From sequence record JN673056: a stretch of DNA of 64,000 bases; one strand, given 5' to 3'. This document shows positions 20,627-48,196 of the stretch, one piece after another. Both the position numbers and the translations under genes were made by a program. Origin of the DNA: Escherichia phage PhaxI. How positions within the stretch are numbered: the stretch's first letter is position 1; every line of letters starts with the position of its first letter. Under the pieces are notes generated by a model, which worked only from the letters and a program-made list of their open reading frames with translations, had not been told where the DNA came from and made no database searches.

Positions 20627-20688
20627 CCATGACTTTACCTCAATTTTGAAGGTATTTAGTCAATCATTAATTCTTTTGAGAATGATAA

Positions 20689-40540: not shown

Positions 40541-42811
40541 CTCAAAGGGGAGAGGACTTTTCAAATTAGCTGGGCTGCGGTAAAGTATTAAACACGAGGG
40601 AAATAACACAGTGGGAGTCGGGTTTGCAGCCCAAAACCAGTTAACCCTATTCTCAGGGCTGTTGATAGAGCGTAATAGCACCCTCGCTGGTGTCAGTGGA
40701 CGCACTGACGTCGAGACGAAACTCCTGTGTAGCGTGATAGCTCAGAAAACGAGAGCACCCGTGCAGTCGACACACATATAAGGGAGTCGGGGCGCTAATC
40801 TCCATCACGCGACAACATTATGAATCTCATAGAGGGTTCATAATGTTGCGTCAAAGGGCAACAAGAGGATTCCTGTTGGTTGAATTAACTTGATTCATAG
40901 TTCTGCTGATCTTCCCGGATTCAGAAGAACACCGACAGGACGAGGCCGGATGCGTAAGTTCCGGCAAATCGATGGTGAGGTGGTGCATTGATGACACGGG
41001 GTAGCGCTCAGAAGTGTGGTTCGATTCCGCACCCTCGCCAACAAAAATAAAAGGTTTTATCAATAACGGGTTACAAAGTATAGTTAACTCACTGAACGGC
41101 AAGCTGTTTGAGTCCTGGCCACTCATAGCGATGTGAGACCAAGACAGGTAGGTTTAGGACTCAAACAGGTTTTCGTTCTCGTTGCTTGCGACTTTGCGGG
41201 TTTTTAGAAACTGACCAAGCAAATAACTGCTAATGATTCCGAAGTTCTGATGGCGGCGTAATAGCCTATAAGTCAGTGAGGTCTTCCGATTCCTCATAAC
41301 AAAATTCGGCGCACTAAAATAGGCGGGAGGGTGTGATTAATAAGCTCCCGCCGAACAATGAGCGGAGCGTGTACTTAATAGGTCGATGGGAGCAGACTAC
41401 TTCTGAGAAATCAGGAGCGTACATGAGAAGGTTCGAGTCCTTCCTCCAATCCCAAAGCCGTTATATCTGACTGTCCAAAGGGGATAAGCTCCTGAGTAAG
41501 CAGAGGTGGGTTGCCTAAGTCAGATGGGATGTAAGGTCAGCGCTGGCTAAGCATTTGGGTTCGACTCCCTAAAGCGGCTCCACATCTTTGAGGGCATTCC
41601 GCGTCAGACGCGAGACTGTATGGAGTTTCAGGAGAAAGGCAACTTAAATCCGAGGCAGTAATGCCCTATGAAATATCGGAGCCTGTTGTACACTGAGTGC
41701 CCTCAAAGATGTGTCTCACAGCGCATCAGTTTGCAGTTATGCAAGCTTCAATAAGTTAAAACGCGCCTCGGGCGTTATGGGATAAAGCCTTAAACAGTGG
41801 AATCCCCAGGGCTAGCAATCCCTGTCAAAGAAGTAGCCGTGTGGGGGTTTGCCCCCACAACGCAAATCGAAGTTCTTTGGGTATATCTTTTAACCCTCAA
41901 GGTCTGTACACAGAAGTGGCCGTCCCATGAGTAAGTTAGGCGATATACAACATGTTGGGTCGAACCTGTTAAGCCCAGAGAACTTCGATTTGCGTACTTG
42001 AGAGAGCGTTGTATGAAATAGGGCAATGCCTTGCAGACCTCGACGCCTACACATTCTAGACACTGGTGGGCGCTGGCGAAGATCTCAATATAAGCTGGTC
42101 ATCAAGGGTAGCTCCCTGACCGGACGAACAATGAGAGGCCGAACTAAGGGGAAACCCGAGACAGGCGCAGTATTTTCAAGTTCGCAAAATGAAGAGCATT
42201 AAAGAACTCGCAAAGGACCTGAAAATTGGTATCCCTGGCTTGTACCACTGAGTGTTCTTCATCTTTGGGTGATTCTATGTTGTCGGGCTATCAACCCATG
42301 CTTGCTGGAGCAACCAGCGGCTCTGAATCAACCAGCCAGCCTCGTTTGGTCCGAGCGTTAGAGGACAAGTTGCTTCTGTATGGAAGCTGCGAGTTGTAAC
42401 ATTTGGTTGCAACTTTGATGGCTCTGGATTTTATAAACCATGTCTATGGGTGACGCGGGATCTTTAGTACCAGAGCCATCAAAGTTGTGTCCAACCCGAT
42501 CTTGCAAGCCCGTATCCCTGTATGGTCAAGACTTGCAAGTGGAAAGCCCTGGAAAAATAAACGCCTGTGGTGAGGCTACGGTGCAAGCCAAAGACCCACA
42601 GAAGCGCGTTGCCGTGAGGCGCACAAACAGGCATGCATGAACTGATCATGCACAAACGGGATAAATGGTTGAGAGACCTTGGTTGGTCACACAATAAATT
42701 ATGGGGCGATAGTTTAAGGGACAGCTGTCCGGACAGCGAGTCCCCAGAGAGAACAGGCTGGCGGCCAAACCAGCAAGGAGAGGTGAAAATCCTCAGACCC
42801 CGCCAAATTTT
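40541..42811 (+). ncRNA. ORF-poor structured region with tRNA 3'-half-like modules and long hairpins; candidate large structured RNA(s) or degenerate tRNA-like genes
   Basis: No credible ORF on either strand for about 2.3 kb; T-arm+acceptor+CCA modules near 41015-41040, 41427-41454, 41555-41582, 42779-42805; GAAA-capped 7-bp helix at 41400-41417; 12-18 bp perfect inverted repeats. Confidence 0.35.
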
Positions 42812-42837
42812 GGCCCCGTAGCTCAGTGGTTAGAGCA
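42812..42837 (+). other. tRNA 5' fragment (acceptor strand plus D-arm) without a matching 3' half
   Basis: GGCCCCG-TA-GCTC-AGTGGTTA-GAGC is a canonical acceptor/D-arm, but no anticodon arm or complementary 3' acceptor strand follows; abuts the endonuclease gene. Confidence 0.5.
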
Positions 42838-42874
42838 GACTAAGTAATACCATGTGTGTTGATTGGTATTACTT

Positions 42875-43516
42875 ATGAAAACTTGTGAATTTTGCTCAAG
42901 GGATTTTGGGACCGTACAAGCATTTTGTTCTCATGTGCGACAGTGTAAACAAAATCCAGACAGAATAATAAGAAACAGGTCTGGGGTTAATAATCCCATG
43001 TATGGTAGGAAGGGTAGTAATCAATTCACCAAAGCTATAAAGTTGGGTTTGGAACCACCTAAAGTTAGGGAAGAAACTTCCCGCGCTATATCCGAAAAAT
43101 TAAAAGGAAAGGCGTGGACACAGGAAAGAAGAGAATCCTTTTCTATGAGGATGAAGGAAATCGTAAAAGAAAATCCTGATTCCTATAGTAGCCACAATGT
43201 GTGTGGTAGGTCAAAAAAGTTTGTGATAGACGGGGTTTTATTTCATTCTTCTTGGGAAGTGGTCTTTGCCAATTATTTGAATAAAAGGTCTTTGGCCTGG
43301 GTGAGAGAAGTAGAATCGATACCTTATATTTGGAAAGGTAAACAGCATTTATACTTTCCTGATTTTTACATACCGGAGTTGGATATGTATGTAGAAGTCA
43401 AGGGGTATGAAACGGAAAGAGATCATGCTAAATGGAGTTGCATTGATAATTTGATAATAATCAGGGAAACTGAGATAAATAAAATTATCTCTGGTGAAAT
43501 TATTTCGGGTCTGTAG
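42875..43516 (+). CDS. homing endonuclease-like protein (zinc finger, NUMOD-like motifs, PD-(D/E)xK-like C-terminus)
   Basis: ATG at 42875; CEFCSRDFG...CSHVRQC finger; NPMYGRKGSNQ and ETSRAISEKLKGK motifs; C-terminal FPDF...ELDMYVEVKG nuclease-like motif; stop overlaps the 5' end of tRNA-Met. Confidence 0.55.
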   Translation: MKTCEFCSRDFGTVQAFCSHVRQCKQNPDRIIRNRSGVNNPMYGRKGSNQFTKAIKLGLEPPKVREETSRAISEKLKGKAWTQERRESFSMRMKEIVKENPDSYSSHNVCGRSKKFVIDGVLFHSSWEVVFANYLNKRSLAWVREVESIPYIWKGKQHLYFPDFYIPELDMYVEVKGYETERDHAKWSCIDNLIIIRETEINKIISGEIISGL

Positions 43517-43583
43517 TTTAATAGGTTAGAACAACGGACTCATAATCCGTCAGGTCTCAGTTCAAATCTGGGTGGACCCACCA
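43507..43583 (+). tRNA. tRNA-Met (anticodon CAT); could equally be initiator or lysidine-modified Ile type
   Basis: Hand-folded cloverleaf: acceptor GGGTCTG/TGGACCC, D-stem GTTT/GAAC, anticodon stem ACGGA/TCCGT with loop CTCATAA, T-arm CTCAG-TTCAAAT-CTGGG, discriminator A, encoded CCA. Confidence 0.85.
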
Positions 43584-43689
43584 AACACAATGAGAGAAAC
43601 TGAAGTGAGAAAGCTCGGTTAAACGAGGGAGTAATTCAGGAGTATCTCACCACTAAATAAACCAGTTGTTCAATAAACAATTGGTGAGT

Positions 43690-43890
43690 ATGATGAAAAC
43701 GTTCGGTGATTTTCTTACTGAGTGGGATGGTCTCGCTACCGACAACAAAGAGATTGTTGAGTTTGTTGAAAAGCGAGGCGATAAGTGGGTTGTCCTTGAC
43801 CACACCAAGACTAAAGTTCTTGGGACACATGACACCAAAGCTGACGCGGACGCCCAATTAAGGGCGATCGAAGCGAATAAACATAGTTGA
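43690..43890 (+). CDS. hypothetical small protein (66 aa)
   Basis: ATG at 43690 with SD GGTGAG; CTAAATA motif about 35 nt upstream; sits inside the RNA island. Confidence 0.4.
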   Translation: MMKTFGDFLTEWDGLATDNKEIVEFVEKRGDKWVVLDHTKTKVLGTHDTKADADAQLRAIEANKHS

Positions 43891-44064
43891 AGGGTTCTAT
43901 ATTATGAAGAATATTTGGGCGGTGATTTCCAACAGAATTCGCGCTAGTTGGGAAGGTCGGATGGTGAGCATCAAGAACGGGTCTCATCCAAAAACTTACG
44001 ATCGTTATGATCCTGCCCTGGATCTTCATGCAGAATAAAGAGTGTTTACGAAAGTAAGAATAGA

Positions 44065-44140
44065 GACGATGTAGTTCAGTCGGTAGAACGGTGGACTGTT
44101 AATCCATATGTCGCAGGTTCAAGTCCTGCCATCGTCGCCA
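44065..44140 (+). tRNA. tRNA-Asn (anticodon GTT)
   Basis: Perfect 7-bp acceptor GACGATG/CATCGTC; D-arm GTTC-AGTCGGTA-GAAC; anticodon loop CTGTTAA; T-arm GCAGG-TTCAAGT-CCTGC; discriminator G; encoded CCA. Confidence 0.9.
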
Positions 44141-44824
44141 AATTGAAGTAGAGTATCTCGAAGCGCCTTCGGAAGTGCGAATCGCGCGATAGCTGCCAAT
44201 GTAAGGCTGCAGGATACAGATACCCAGGGGAGTGAGACCTACTTCATACAATTTCAGAAGTGTAGAGGCTACAGTAGTGCGCACCTCACGGAAAGCTACA
44301 CCGGACACTCTGATACAAATCTACCACCGCGTGGATTAGCTGAGGAAGGATGGCCGATGTCCTCAAGCGTGGCCCAGCACGTGGTGGTAGACCAAACACA
44401 GTAAGCGTTGCAGCCAGCTGTGTATAAAATGGGGTGACTCCACATCGGAAACGATGCCCCAACTTCCAGAAATGGTCGGGCGCGAAGCCTGTAAAGTTCC
44501 AGGAGATCTAACCAGAAGGCACTGGTGCCAGTTAACCAATCGGCGCTGATAAGCGCGGGGAGTTGGGCTACGGCAGATCAAATGCACAATCGGGTGTGAA
44601 GCCCGTCCAAATTACGCTCGGTCAAGCAGTCTGTTTGTAGACGGTCGGTGCGGGTTTTGCAAGACCCAAATTGACCATCAAATAGATGAGGCGCGACTCT
44701 CTGGGTTGATCACCAGGGTGCTGAGGTTCAACCCCTCTAACGGACACCAATAAGTCGTTTCGGTCAGGTCAAGAACCCAGATTTAGGTCATGGCTTGGAA
44801 ATTCTTGACCGAAGCGCAGTATAC

Positions 44825-44913
44825 GGAAGGTTGCCCGAGAGGTTTAAGGGACTCGACTGCTAATCGAGTGGGGCTTTTAGCCCCCGAAGGTTCGAATCCT
44901 TCACCTTCCGCCA
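44825..44913 (+). tRNA. tRNA-Ser (anticodon GCT), type II with long variable arm
   Basis: Perfect acceptor GGAAGGT/ACCTTCC; anticodon stem CTCGA/TCGAG with loop CTGCTAA; long variable arm GGGGCTTTTAGCCCCC; T-arm GAAGG-TTCGAAT-CCTTC; discriminator G; CCA. Confidence 0.9.
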
Positions 44914-44916
44914 AAT

Positions 44917-45002
44917 TGCTTCATAGCTCGAGTGGTAGAGCGCAGGAAAGTTTCGAGAGAACAAGGTGCCTGAGGTCACTGGTTCGAATCCAGTTGAAGC
45001 AA
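44917..45002 (+). ncRNA. tRNA-like RNA lacking a foldable anticodon arm (possible Y RNA-like/tRNA-mimic or tRNA pseudogene)
   Basis: Perfect 7-bp acceptor TGCTTCA/TGAAGCA, canonical D-arm GCTC-GAGTGGTA-GAGC and T-arm ACTGG-TTCGAAT-CCAGT, but 35 nt between them contain no 5-bp stem/7-nt loop; no encoded CCA. Confidence 0.5.
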
Positions 45003-45230
45003 TCAGAATAATGAGTGTGACTTCCTGAAGATGAAGAAGGTGTGCATGCCGACTTCATAACAATCTGGGGTTAAAGGAAGTTAAGAAAGCCGGAGGATAT
45101 GCAAAGGTGAAATGCAATAGCTTTTCATTGTCCTGACGGTTTCGGGTTCGATTCCCGACGCACTCTCCCAAACGCCCATTATCAGAAATTGCTGTGAGTA
45201 GTCTTTCCATCCCCACGATGGTTTAACATA

Positions 45231-45258
45231 GCCCGATCAGAAGATCGGGCTTCTTTTG
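45231..45258 (+). terminator. rho-independent terminator closing the RNA island
   Basis: 8-bp hairpin GCCCGATC-AGAA-GATCGGGC followed by TTCTTTTGT. Confidence 0.65.
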
Positions 45259-45297
45259 TCTATAATAAATAGATCTGACTTGTAAAGGAGGTCTATT

Positions 45298-45531
45298 ATG
45301 GCAACTGCTAAGATCACACCAAACGCAAGTACATGGACGCAAGTCTCAGACGGCACATCTTTGAAAACTCTTCAAGTGACTCACGGTTCTGTGTATCTGT
45401 GTGATAGCCCCAGCGCTCCAACGGGTAACAACGCGCATATCATATATCAAGGAAATATGGTCGTTTTAACCCCGCCGACGGTGGGATGGGTTAAGGCAAT
45501 TAATTCTGATGCGACGGTTATCGTTTCTTAA
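45298..45531 (+). CDS. hypothetical small beta-rich protein
   Basis: 77 aa; SD AAAGGAGG; TATAAT-like element upstream. Confidence 0.5.
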   Translation: MATAKITPNASTWTQVSDGTSLKTLQVTHGSVYLCDSPSAPTGNNAHIIYQGNMVVLTPPTVGWVKAINSDATVIVS

Positions 45532-48185: not shown

Positions 48186-48196
48186 CTAAATACCCC
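48186..48196 (+). promoter_or_regulatory. late-promoter-like motif CTAAATACCCC
   Basis: Exact CTAAATACCCC about 23 nt upstream of the ATG at 48219; part of inverted repeat ATACCCCA...TGGGGTAT. Confidence 0.45.

Follow-up and report, generated by a model that had tools for sequence, protein, structure and literature searches.

Organization of the locus

Escherichia phage PhaxI (sequence record JN673056) carries, within its transfer RNA (tRNA) gene cluster, a putative homing-endonuclease gene that lies between the 5' fragment of one tRNA gene and a second, complete tRNA gene. The stretch analyzed here, one strand of 64,000 nucleotides (nt) and hereafter called the window, is from a Kuttervirus (Ackermannviridae) genome, and the region in question is 99% identical to Salmonella phage Se_EM1. 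The locus is the tRNA cluster of Ackermannviridae, in which ARAGORN predicts tRNA(CAU), tRNA-Asn and tRNA-Ser on the plus strand; the features discussed below are collected in Table 1. Comparisons were made with 323 matching phage records, nearly all of them from Ackermannviridae, for example Kuttervirus.

Table 1. Features of the interrupted tRNA locus, in positions of the window.
Feature	Position	Strand	Description
Resident tRNA(CAU) remnant, tRNA-Ile2-like	42812-42838	+	GGCCCCGTAGCTCAGTGGTTAGAGCAG, 27 nt; tRNA nt 1-27
Inserted cassette	42839-43646	+	808 nt in place of resident tRNA nt 28-70 (43 nt); from alignment to empty sites
CTAAGTA, one mismatch from CTAAATA	42840-42846	+	In the 5' arm of the leader hairpin
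Leader hairpin	42841-42875	+	12-base-pair stem (42841-42852/42864-42875), 11-nt loop; ViennaRNA
Putative free-standing homing-endonuclease gene	42875-43516	+	213 amino acids
Cassette tRNA(CAU), complete	43507-43583	+	ARAGORN; Rfam tRNA, 64.4 bits
Spacer module, right end of the cassette in Kuttervirus	43584-43646	+	Also present in SJ2 and SeF3a, which lack the endonuclease gene there
Right junction	43647-43652	+	TCACCA, common to spacer end and resident tRNA 3' end; flank homology restarts
Resident CTAAATA motif for downstream small reading frames	43653-43659	+	Outside the cassette; marks the intact right flank

The 5' fragment comprises the acceptor 5' strand, the D-arm and the first base of the anticodon stem of a resident tRNA(CAU). 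It matches, at 27 of 27 positions, an intact tRNA(CAU) at the same site in the phages SJ3 and PLL1, which lack the open reading frame (ORF) and in which the same flanks enclose a complete 76-nt gene (GGCCCCGTAGCTCAGTGGTTAGAGCAGTCGACTCATAATCGATTGGTCGCTGGTTCAAGTCCAGCCAGGGTCACCA). The original prediction, made from the letters of the window alone, had reported such a fragment and proposed examining ORF-free relatives for an empty site and for the tRNA that the fragment came from; both are found, and only the fragment's end has to be moved, from 42837 to 42838. The ORF is absent from most relatives and the resident tRNA(CAU) is intact in most, with the SJ3-type site present at 95% identity or more in at least 89 records. 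Over its full length, the resident tRNA shares 92-93% identity with the E. coli gene annotated as tRNA-Ile (CAU) in RefSeq. A second form of empty site occurs in the Agtrevirus SKML-39, whose intact tRNA(CAU) has its own polymorphisms (GGTCCTG..TCGG), and the Agtrevirus SW16-7 retains exactly the first 28 nt of this SKML-39-type gene, followed by the cassette. Empty sites are thus known from SJ3, PLL1, Det7 and SKML-39, and for two genera (SJ3/PLL1 versus the window, SKML-39 versus SW16-7) the limits of empty and occupied sites are fixed at single-base resolution.

A cassette in place of part of a tRNA gene

The cassette consists of a leader hairpin, the ORF, a different and complete tRNA(CAU) and a 63-nt spacer; its G+C content is 0.378, against 0.49-0.50 in the flanks. 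The stop codon of the ORF (TAG, 43514-43516) forms nt 8-10 of the cassette tRNA (U8-A9-G10), so that the last 10 nt of the ORF are the first 10 nt of the tRNA, an overlap with an intact tRNA that the original prediction had already described. With its stop codon inside the tRNA, the nuclease gene is therefore physically tied to it.

The cassette tRNA has the D-arm GGTTAGAACA and the anticodon stem ACGGA/TCCGT and differs from the resident tRNA across the candidate target considered below; the anticodon loops of the two tRNAs are the same (CTCATAA). No match to the cassette tRNA was found in 5,426 E. coli genomes, and the tRNA is 100% identical in SW16-7 and in the phage KE27. Its acceptor 5' strand, GGGTCTG, is common to the counterpart in Vibrio phage Kuja, and its acceptor pairs U4-A69 and C5-G68 are intermediate between those of E. 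coli tRNA-Met and tRNA-Ile2. Judged from these alignments, a foreign tRNA(CAU) has taken the place of a host-like gene of the tRNA-Ile2 type; the event is neither a duplication nor an intron, because 43 nt have been exchanged for 808 nt and the cassette tRNA lacks an E. coli match. The original prediction of a homing-endonuclease insertion thus agrees with the empty sites and with the nuclease family described below, whereas its proposal that a tRNA gene had been split or duplicated gives way to the replacement of 43 nt.

The left junction, GAGCAG/A (slashes mark junctions), is the same in five genome backgrounds, each with its own polymorphisms in the 5' fragment. Right junctions were compared in three phages, one per Ackermannviridae genus, and all three differ: the window has the TCACCA microhomology, SW16-7 joins at a TCAGGA microhomology inside the spacer, which is shortened there, and the Taipeivirus cp19 joins at the end of the cassette tRNA, with the spacer absent. 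In the window, the remnant reads GCAG/ACT/AAG, which would fit either an ..ACT junction that has lost 3 nt or one placed directly behind nt 27.

A modular protein with a PD-(D/E)xK nuclease domain

In the protein, a C2HC zinc finger at the N-terminus is joined by a NUMOD3-like helical linker to a PD-(D/E)xK nuclease domain at the C-terminus. We place its start at the ATG at 42875, as originally predicted for a 213-residue protein, because the N-termini of the family align there at M-x-x-C. In an alignment with 44 relatives, C4, C7, H20 and C24 of the zinc finger and P162-D163 and E174-V175-K176 of the nuclease motif are invariant, and E128 is nearly so. These residues, together with weak Pfam matches, bear out the C2HC-like finger, NUMOD-like and PD-(D/E)xK motifs that had been read from the sequence, and the protein searches proposed with them do lead to a nuclease family. 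A full-length match, covering residues 1-213 on positions 3-231 of a 236-position profile, is PHROG 15137 (E = 7.4e-77), which bears the generic annotation 'endonuclease'.

Pfam Phage_endo_I is matched by residues 119-186 only (E = 8.6e-5), at 22.6 bits against a curated gathering cut-off of 29.1; we regard the protein as related to this family and do not file it as a member. DUF7487, NUMOD3 and zf-C2H2 are likewise matched below threshold. Among the 44 relatives, 27 match Phage_endo_I (E ≤ 0.01) and 29 match DUF7487. In a sequence search of the PDB, residues 123-186 resemble T7 endonuclease I (E = 0.005), with PDF and E-x-KG aligned. No GIY-YIG domain was matched in Pfam or PHROGs, and the EDxHD active-site motif is not present: the ORF has PDFY...EVKG, and the similarity to EDxHD enzymes is one of fold only. 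The ratio of nonsynonymous to synonymous substitution rates (dN/dS) is 0.085 relative to the 87%-identical copy in cp19, by which measure the ORF is under purifying selection. The records that we examined annotate such genes as 'hypothetical protein', 'endonuclease I' or junction resolvase, and the adjoining tRNA remnants are unannotated in all of them.

Evidence for mobility

A tblastn search found the protein at 87% identity or more in 7 of the 323 records: four Kuttervirus, two Agtrevirus (SW16-7 and SP-9-14) and one Taipeivirus (cp19). Between the window and S115, the fragment and cassette differ by a single mismatch in 835 nt (99.9% identity for the cassette), with the left and right flanks at 92.0% and 97.4%; the flanks of the window are nearest to those of the empty-site phage SJ3 (99.6% and 99.0%). 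Against Agtrevirus, the cassette is 96.9% identical and the tRNA plus spacer 100%, with the flanks at 82-86%. Two metagenomic contigs place a 90%-identical protein in two further backgrounds, again with their own 5' fragments. Taken together, the distribution, base composition, conservation and junctions resemble the classic population signatures of a homing endonuclease gene, and they suggest that the ORF product cleaves DNA and homes.

KE27 carries the cassette tRNA and spacer (140 of 140 positions identical) and lacks the ORF, the fragment and the upstream element. Two similar tRNA-like 5' ends, GGGGCGATAGTTTAA and GGGTCTGTAGTTTAA, meet at its junction, a configuration that fits loss of the endonuclease, through one deletion between these repeats, after invasion. 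We also considered KE27 as an ancestral donor state and disfavor it, since the 140/140 identity and the junction in a direct repeat would rather indicate a deletion.

The same data bear on whether the ORF could instead be a resident, non-mobile phage nuclease, such as a T7-endonuclease-I-like junction resolvase for DNA maturation that happens to sit in a variable tRNA region. Its best sequence matches are indeed phage endonuclease I and Holliday-junction-resolvase families. However, the ORF is missing from about 98% of closely related genomes, a distribution that largely refutes this reading; moreover, the base composition of the cassette is foreign, the cassette varies far less than its flanks do and occupies one position in five backgrounds, and zinc-finger and NUMOD3-like N-terminal modules are typical of phage homing endonucleases (PMC3943268). 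We regard a resident nuclease as very improbable.

A recurrent arrangement in a wider family

Distant homologs (23-47% amino acid identity) are flanked by a tRNA half that breaks off in the anticodon loop and, on the opposite side, by an intact variant tRNA; this variant is tRNA(CAU) in one of the clades and tRNA-Arg(UCU) in a second. In Kuja (36% identity), the ORF is preceded by 24 nt of a tRNA 5' end that match E. coli tRNA-Ile(CAU) exactly, and the stop codon forms nt 8-10 of a complete tRNA(CAU) starting GGGTCTGTAG; the metagenome locus L017 has a layout like that of Kuja, and at locus L015 a complete tRNA(CAU) gene stands on either side of the ORF. The ORF of Acinetobacter phage Apostate lies in an anticodon loop, with two flanking halves that would together make a perfect tRNA(CAU), and phage ZZ1 has an intact tRNA(CAU) gene at the equivalent position. 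Just upstream of this tRNA(CAU) site, both Apostate (L006 2342-2416) and ZZ1 (L104 457-527) have a tRNA with the anticodon CUA, annotated as tRNA-Pyl or 'possible suppressor'.

The Apostate locus, where the halves flank the ORF exactly, is the arrangement expected if the ORF were encoded in a tRNA-gene intron, either group I as in cyanobacterial tRNA introns or of an unknown splicing type, and insertion in or near the anticodon loop coincides with the classic site of bacterial tRNA introns. Flanking exons that form one tRNA occur only there; in the window, the resident tRNA has lost its 3' half, and what comes next is another, complete tRNA. The non-coding sequence around the ORF amounts to some 36 nt on its 5' side and nothing on its 3' side. 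We rejected the intron reading, which the original prediction had also set aside in its simple form, and we give it almost no credence: the downstream tRNA is complete on its own, and Rfam searches (E ≤ 1) of positions 41000-45300 of the window and of three homolog loci (L006, L017 and L020) returned only tRNAs and noise, with no group I or group II intron ribozyme.

Homologs also occur in T4-like phages. In Tequatrovirus F25, one lies between tRNA-Ile(CAU) and tRNA-Arg(UCU) and overlaps the tRNA-Arg gene by 38 nt; in this record (L007 2352-3191), the tRNA features are annotated on the wrong strand and offset relative to the ARAGORN calls. In the T4-like phage IME341, the homolog is in the tRNA region and not at nrdA/nrdB, where hef reportedly resides; Hef is said to be a 'unique' endonuclease of phage U5.

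We surveyed the family in IMG/VR using non-redundant loci, which are not phylogenetically independent, so that the P values that follow are nominal and indicative only. Among close relatives (n = 38 non-redundant loci), a tRNA lies within 60 nt downstream of the ORF or overlaps it in 27, and in 22 of these 27 it is tRNA(CAU), compared with 34 of 175 flanking tRNAs in the background (nominal P = 6e-12); nine close relatives have the exact 10-nt overlap between ORF and tRNA. In a distant clade (23-33% identity), a tRNA-Arg(UCU) lies 11-52 nt upstream of the ATG at 11 of 18 loci, ten of them at 11-19 nt (nominal P = 9e-9). Within this clade, L070 and L073 have a tRNA-Arg 5' fragment, the ORF and a complete tRNA-Arg overlapping the stop codon, and L054 and L065 have the mirror arrangement, in which a complete tRNA-Arg is followed by the ORF and a 3' tRNA remnant (T-arm, acceptor and CCA). 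The L065 remnant matches the tRNA-Arg acceptor stem of related loci. Across these loci, a tRNA remnant paired with a variant tRNA is a recurrent design of the family rather than a one-off accident. A profile search puts the family at 354 clusters (50% identity) at E ≤ 1e-30 and at 2,726 at E ≤ 1e-10. In the library that we searched, which is incomplete, no literature on the family or on its link to tRNA(CAU) or tRNA-Arg was found, only reports on SegB and general reviews.

A candidate target within the tRNA gene

The upstream tRNA remnants end in ..ACTC or ..ACT, at position 33-34 inside the anticodon loop, or, in Apostate, after CAT. Several loci keep only about 18 nt, consisting of GGTTAGAGCA, 4-5 bases and ACTC. 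In the window, GGTTAGAGCA lies within the remnant at 42828-42837, and the rest of the window has mismatched occurrences only. Because counting GGTTAGAGCA with up to two mismatches gave a 7% background, exact matches were used: the surveyed family loci contain 12, all of which (12/12) are outside called tRNAs, at distances of 26-58 nt 5' of the ATG. No intact tRNA(CAU) next to an endonuclease gene has GGTTAGAGCA; the window, for example, has GGTTAGAACA, and GGTAGAGCAG, GGTTAGTAGCA, GGTTAGCAGCA and GGTTAGTGCC are examples from elsewhere. The full candidate motif, GGTTAGAGCA-N5-CTCATAA, is found at 5 of 104 loci (SJ3, PLL1, SKML-39, Det7 and ZZ1), all with the ORF absent at the site, and is missing from all ORF-bearing loci; the E. 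coli tRNA-Ile(CAU) gene also has it.

These patterns suggest that the recognition sequence extends from the 3' strand of the D-arm across the anticodon loop, that the enzyme cuts close to the anticodon, and that the co-traveling tRNA may be immune through its D-arm and anticodon-stem changes. SJ2, which has no endonuclease gene, carries a tRNA(CAU) (L005 1323-1399) with GGTAAGTAGCA in place of GGTTAGAGCA and could, under this model, have a naturally resistant allele.

Alternatively, the ORF may encode a real homing endonuclease whose site lies elsewhere, in the T-arm as for SegB or between genes, such that the half-tRNAs would do no more than mark the points where recombination between similar tRNA genes tends to be resolved. 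SegB recognizes a conserved T-psi-C motif, with a site in a tRNA intergenic region, free-standing endonucleases can cut away from their insertion site (SegG, cited in PMC2988022), and the locus itself is a mosaic in which tRNA-sized modules have visibly been reshuffled at ends resembling CCA. Yet in very distant relatives, independent junctions fall together at tRNA nt 33-36, whichever the clade (CAU or UCU) and the orientation, and GGTTAGAGCA persists only as a truncated piece by the gene, sometimes of about 18 nt, and is absent from every intact neighboring tRNA(CAU). We judge a site elsewhere to be unlikely.

A leader hairpin with a promoter-like motif

The original prediction had a 7-base-pair hairpin at 42845-42871 hiding the start region of the ORF; a hairpin is present, and it has 12 base pairs and spans 42841-42875. 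Its predicted free energy is -13.6 kcal/mol (z = -4.2), and none of 200 shuffled sequences was as stable. The 3' arm covers positions -11 to +1 relative to the start codon, up to the A of the ATG, in line with the proposed sequestration. Across six distinct versions of the leader, 94% of stem cells are paired and three pairs have compensatory double changes; control structures slid by 1-3 columns had zero. In SW16-7, the whole hairpin is inverted (L009 2467-2501 versus window 42841-42875; 35 nt, 100% identical in reverse complement), an inversion that flips the loop and leaves the stem unchanged. Equivalent hairpins precede distant homologs; their loop or 5' arm contains (T)ATAAATA, and GGAG is part of the 3' arm.

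The heptamer CTAAATA occurs 17 times in the window, compared with 7.6 expected, a count that none of 100 shuffles reached. Its strand tracks gene direction and it is located upstream of start codons. Because of this enrichment and the T4 consensus TATAAATA, CTAAATA is probably a late-promoter core in this phage, although promoter function is putative. It often precedes a AATACCCC...GGGGTATT hairpin ending just 5' of the ATG (at 48186, 35614(-) and 32397(-)); other CTAAATA sites are at 20659(-) and 8811(-). The combination of motif and hairpin looks like a general late-gene leader design of the phage, which the endonuclease leader shares, having CTAAGTA inside its 5' arm; the cp19 and metagenome versions have TTAAATA at the corresponding position. 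Sigma-70 promoters and terminators around the cassette were not above chance. The leader of the ORF matches the control described for I-TevI, I-TevII, I-TevIII, segB and mobE, in which early read-through RNA has its ribosome-binding site masked by the hairpin and a late promoter within the hairpin yields translatable RNA (PMC2988022).

Proposed mechanism

We consider it highly probable that the cassette is a free-standing homing-endonuclease element acting by gene replacement on a tRNA gene. In this scheme, the ORF would be transcribed within the tRNA cluster, with the 12-base-pair hairpin blocking the ribosome-binding region on read-through transcripts; the near-consensus late-promoter motif of the 5' arm would let late transcripts begin within the hairpin, freeing the start codon and restricting synthesis to late infection. 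The zinc finger and NUMOD3-like linker would bind DNA, and the PD-(D/E)xK domain would cut the resident-type tRNA(CAU) of co-infecting, cassette-free phages, probably recognizing GGTTAGAGCA-N5-CTCATAA, which reaches from the 3' strand of the D-arm to the anticodon loop, and breaking the DNA within this loop or beside it. Repair by copying from the cassette-bearing genome would then transfer the nuclease gene together with the variant tRNA(CAU), the left arm being the retained 5' tRNA piece and the right arm homology or microhomology near the tRNA 3' end; the junctions display this anatomy, and the repair route is what they suggest. Finally, the variant tRNA would restore a tRNA with a CAU anticodon that lacks the target, leaving the converted genome uncut.

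Several points weigh against this account. The cassette tRNA could be either Met or Ile2 by isotype, such that its role as a functional replacement is only partly supported. The fragment in the window ends at nt 27 (or nt 33, allowing for the 3-nt deletion), versus a clean C34 in many relatives. The CTAAGTA of the leader mismatches the enriched heptamer at one base, and there is no evident Shine-Dalgarno sequence in the ORF leader. On the protein side, the Phage_endo_I score falls short of the family's cut-off, and a Foldseek search with the protein gave nothing significant. The survey loci lack phylogenetic independence, so that the P values for the tRNA associations are nominal. The candidate site is derived from the sequences that survive beside the gene, which could instead be a recombination-prone conserved segment of the tRNA.

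More broadly, the family may consist of 'tRNA allele drives': PD-(D/E)xK homing endonucleases that cut tRNA(CAU) or tRNA-Arg(UCU) near the anticodon loop and always carry an intact, cut-resistant allele. Conserved tRNA sequence would then serve as portable homology arms, which would explain the spread across phage genera and families; the retained half-site may be an autoregulatory operator, and the stop codon within the tRNA may couple expression to RNase P processing. We put forward this generalization tentatively, as something that may nearly as well hold as not.

Comparison with known systems

SegB of T4 (PMC2330249, PMC2988022, PMC13096335) is the closest functional analog. Like the window ORF, it is free-standing, intron-less and located inside a phage tRNA cluster; it recognizes a conserved tRNA-gene motif, spreads with neighboring tRNA genes and has a leader hairpin with a predicted late promoter. 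Furthermore, the F25 homolog fills the slot between tRNA-Ile(CAU) and tRNA-Arg that segB fills in T4. SegB differs in being a GIY-YIG enzyme, a catalytic domain unrelated to the PD-(D/E)xK domain of the window ORF, and in its motif, which lies in the T-psi-C arm; SegB had no isotype preference in a 2026 survey, whereas the ORF family is tied to tRNA(CAU) and tRNA-Arg(UCU). The ORF family also leaves a half-tRNA ending in the anticodon loop and carries an intact variant tRNA that often supplies the stop codon of the ORF.

The analogy raises the possibility that the cassette has been co-opted and that its main benefit is a variant tRNA(CAU) escaping a host defence that targets tRNAs, a role that would add to homing and not replace it. 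SegB-driven tRNA gene amplification was reported to overcome Septu immunity in the case of tRNA-Tyr (PMC13096335), and the stems of the cassette tRNA differ from those of the host-like resident tRNA. But no repeat amplification was seen at the locus, and the two tRNAs have identical anticodon loops. We think co-option unlikely.

I-TevI (PMC2988022) also has a hairpin that hides its ribosome-binding site, with a late promoter inside. A sequence resembling its homing site overlaps that promoter, and in the window, the promoter-like motif is immediately preceded by a literal half of the presumed target. I-TevI differs in being a GIY-YIG enzyme encoded within an intron, and the autorepression reported for it would be hypothetical for the window ORF. 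I-Bth0305I and the Vsr-like EDxHD enzymes (PMC3239194, PMC3943268) differ in active site, as the ORF has PD...EVK rather than EDxHD and shares 19% identity, and I-Bth0305I is intron-encoded in recA.

T7 endonuclease I (Phage_endo_I; PDB 1m0d, 1fzr and 2pfj) is the best sequence-level relative of the C-terminal domain. The window ORF adds a DNA-binding N-terminal half of about 115 residues and, unlike a core resolvase gene, has a sporadic and site-specific distribution among genomes. I-Ssp6803I, which is encoded in the group I intron of the Synechocystis tRNA-fMet gene, shares with the window ORF the PD-(D/E)xK fold and an association with the anticodon loop of a CAU-anticodon tRNA gene. The window locus differs in having no intron ribozyme, and the ORF in its modular design of zinc finger, NUMOD3 linker and nuclease; I-Ssp6803I was not matched by the ORF in the PDB sequence search. 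PD-(D/E)xK is a recognized homing-endonuclease fold, represented by I-Ssp6803I and described as forming compact multimers, and the NUMOD-tethered architecture has been described for phage HNH, GIY-YIG and EDxHD enzymes (PMC3943268).

The element in the window is thus an ordinary kind of object, a phage homing-endonuclease insertion, that exposes what is apparently an undescribed, isotype-specific family replacing tRNA genes. If cleavage is confirmed, the combination of a zinc finger, a NUMOD3 linker and a T7-endonuclease-I-like PD-(D/E)xK domain would be a new homing-endonuclease architecture, for which the sequence data already predict the target, the cut region and the changes that confer immunity. 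Such an isotype-specific selfish element overwriting host-like tRNA genes would explain the exchange and replacement of tRNA genes among large phages. It bears on the variability of phage tRNA sets and, after the 2026 SegB study, on how tRNA-cluster endonucleases shape resistance to host defences that target tRNAs.

Other features of the region

The spacer ends in TCACCA, and in SJ2 and SeF3a a 270-nt module with a T-arm and ACCA at its end comes after it (43584-43652; L005 1501-1847). Modules of tRNA size whose ends resemble CCA have apparently been shuffled here, and they may be small stable RNAs.

Immediately upstream of the tRNA remnant, at 42703-42808, lies a conserved non-coding element of about 105 nt (GGGGCGATAGTTTAAGGGAC...GAGGTGAAAATCCTCAGACCCCGCCA) with several helices, a T-arm-like hairpin and a tRNA-like end (CGCC-A), in which neither ARAGORN nor Rfam calls a tRNA. 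The element is 5' of tRNA(CAU) in SJ3 and the window and 3' of it in SJ2, Det7 and cp19; a few compensatory changes back its fold. The 1.7 kb or so upstream of the cassette (41100-42800) have no ORF longer than about 90 amino acids on either strand and include a long, near-perfect hairpin at 42395-42506; this stretch is conserved in relatives, where its annotations are tiny hypothetical ORFs only. Farther downstream, where ARAGORN is silent, Rfam places a fourth tRNA at 44917-45002 (48.7 bits), right behind tRNA-Ser.

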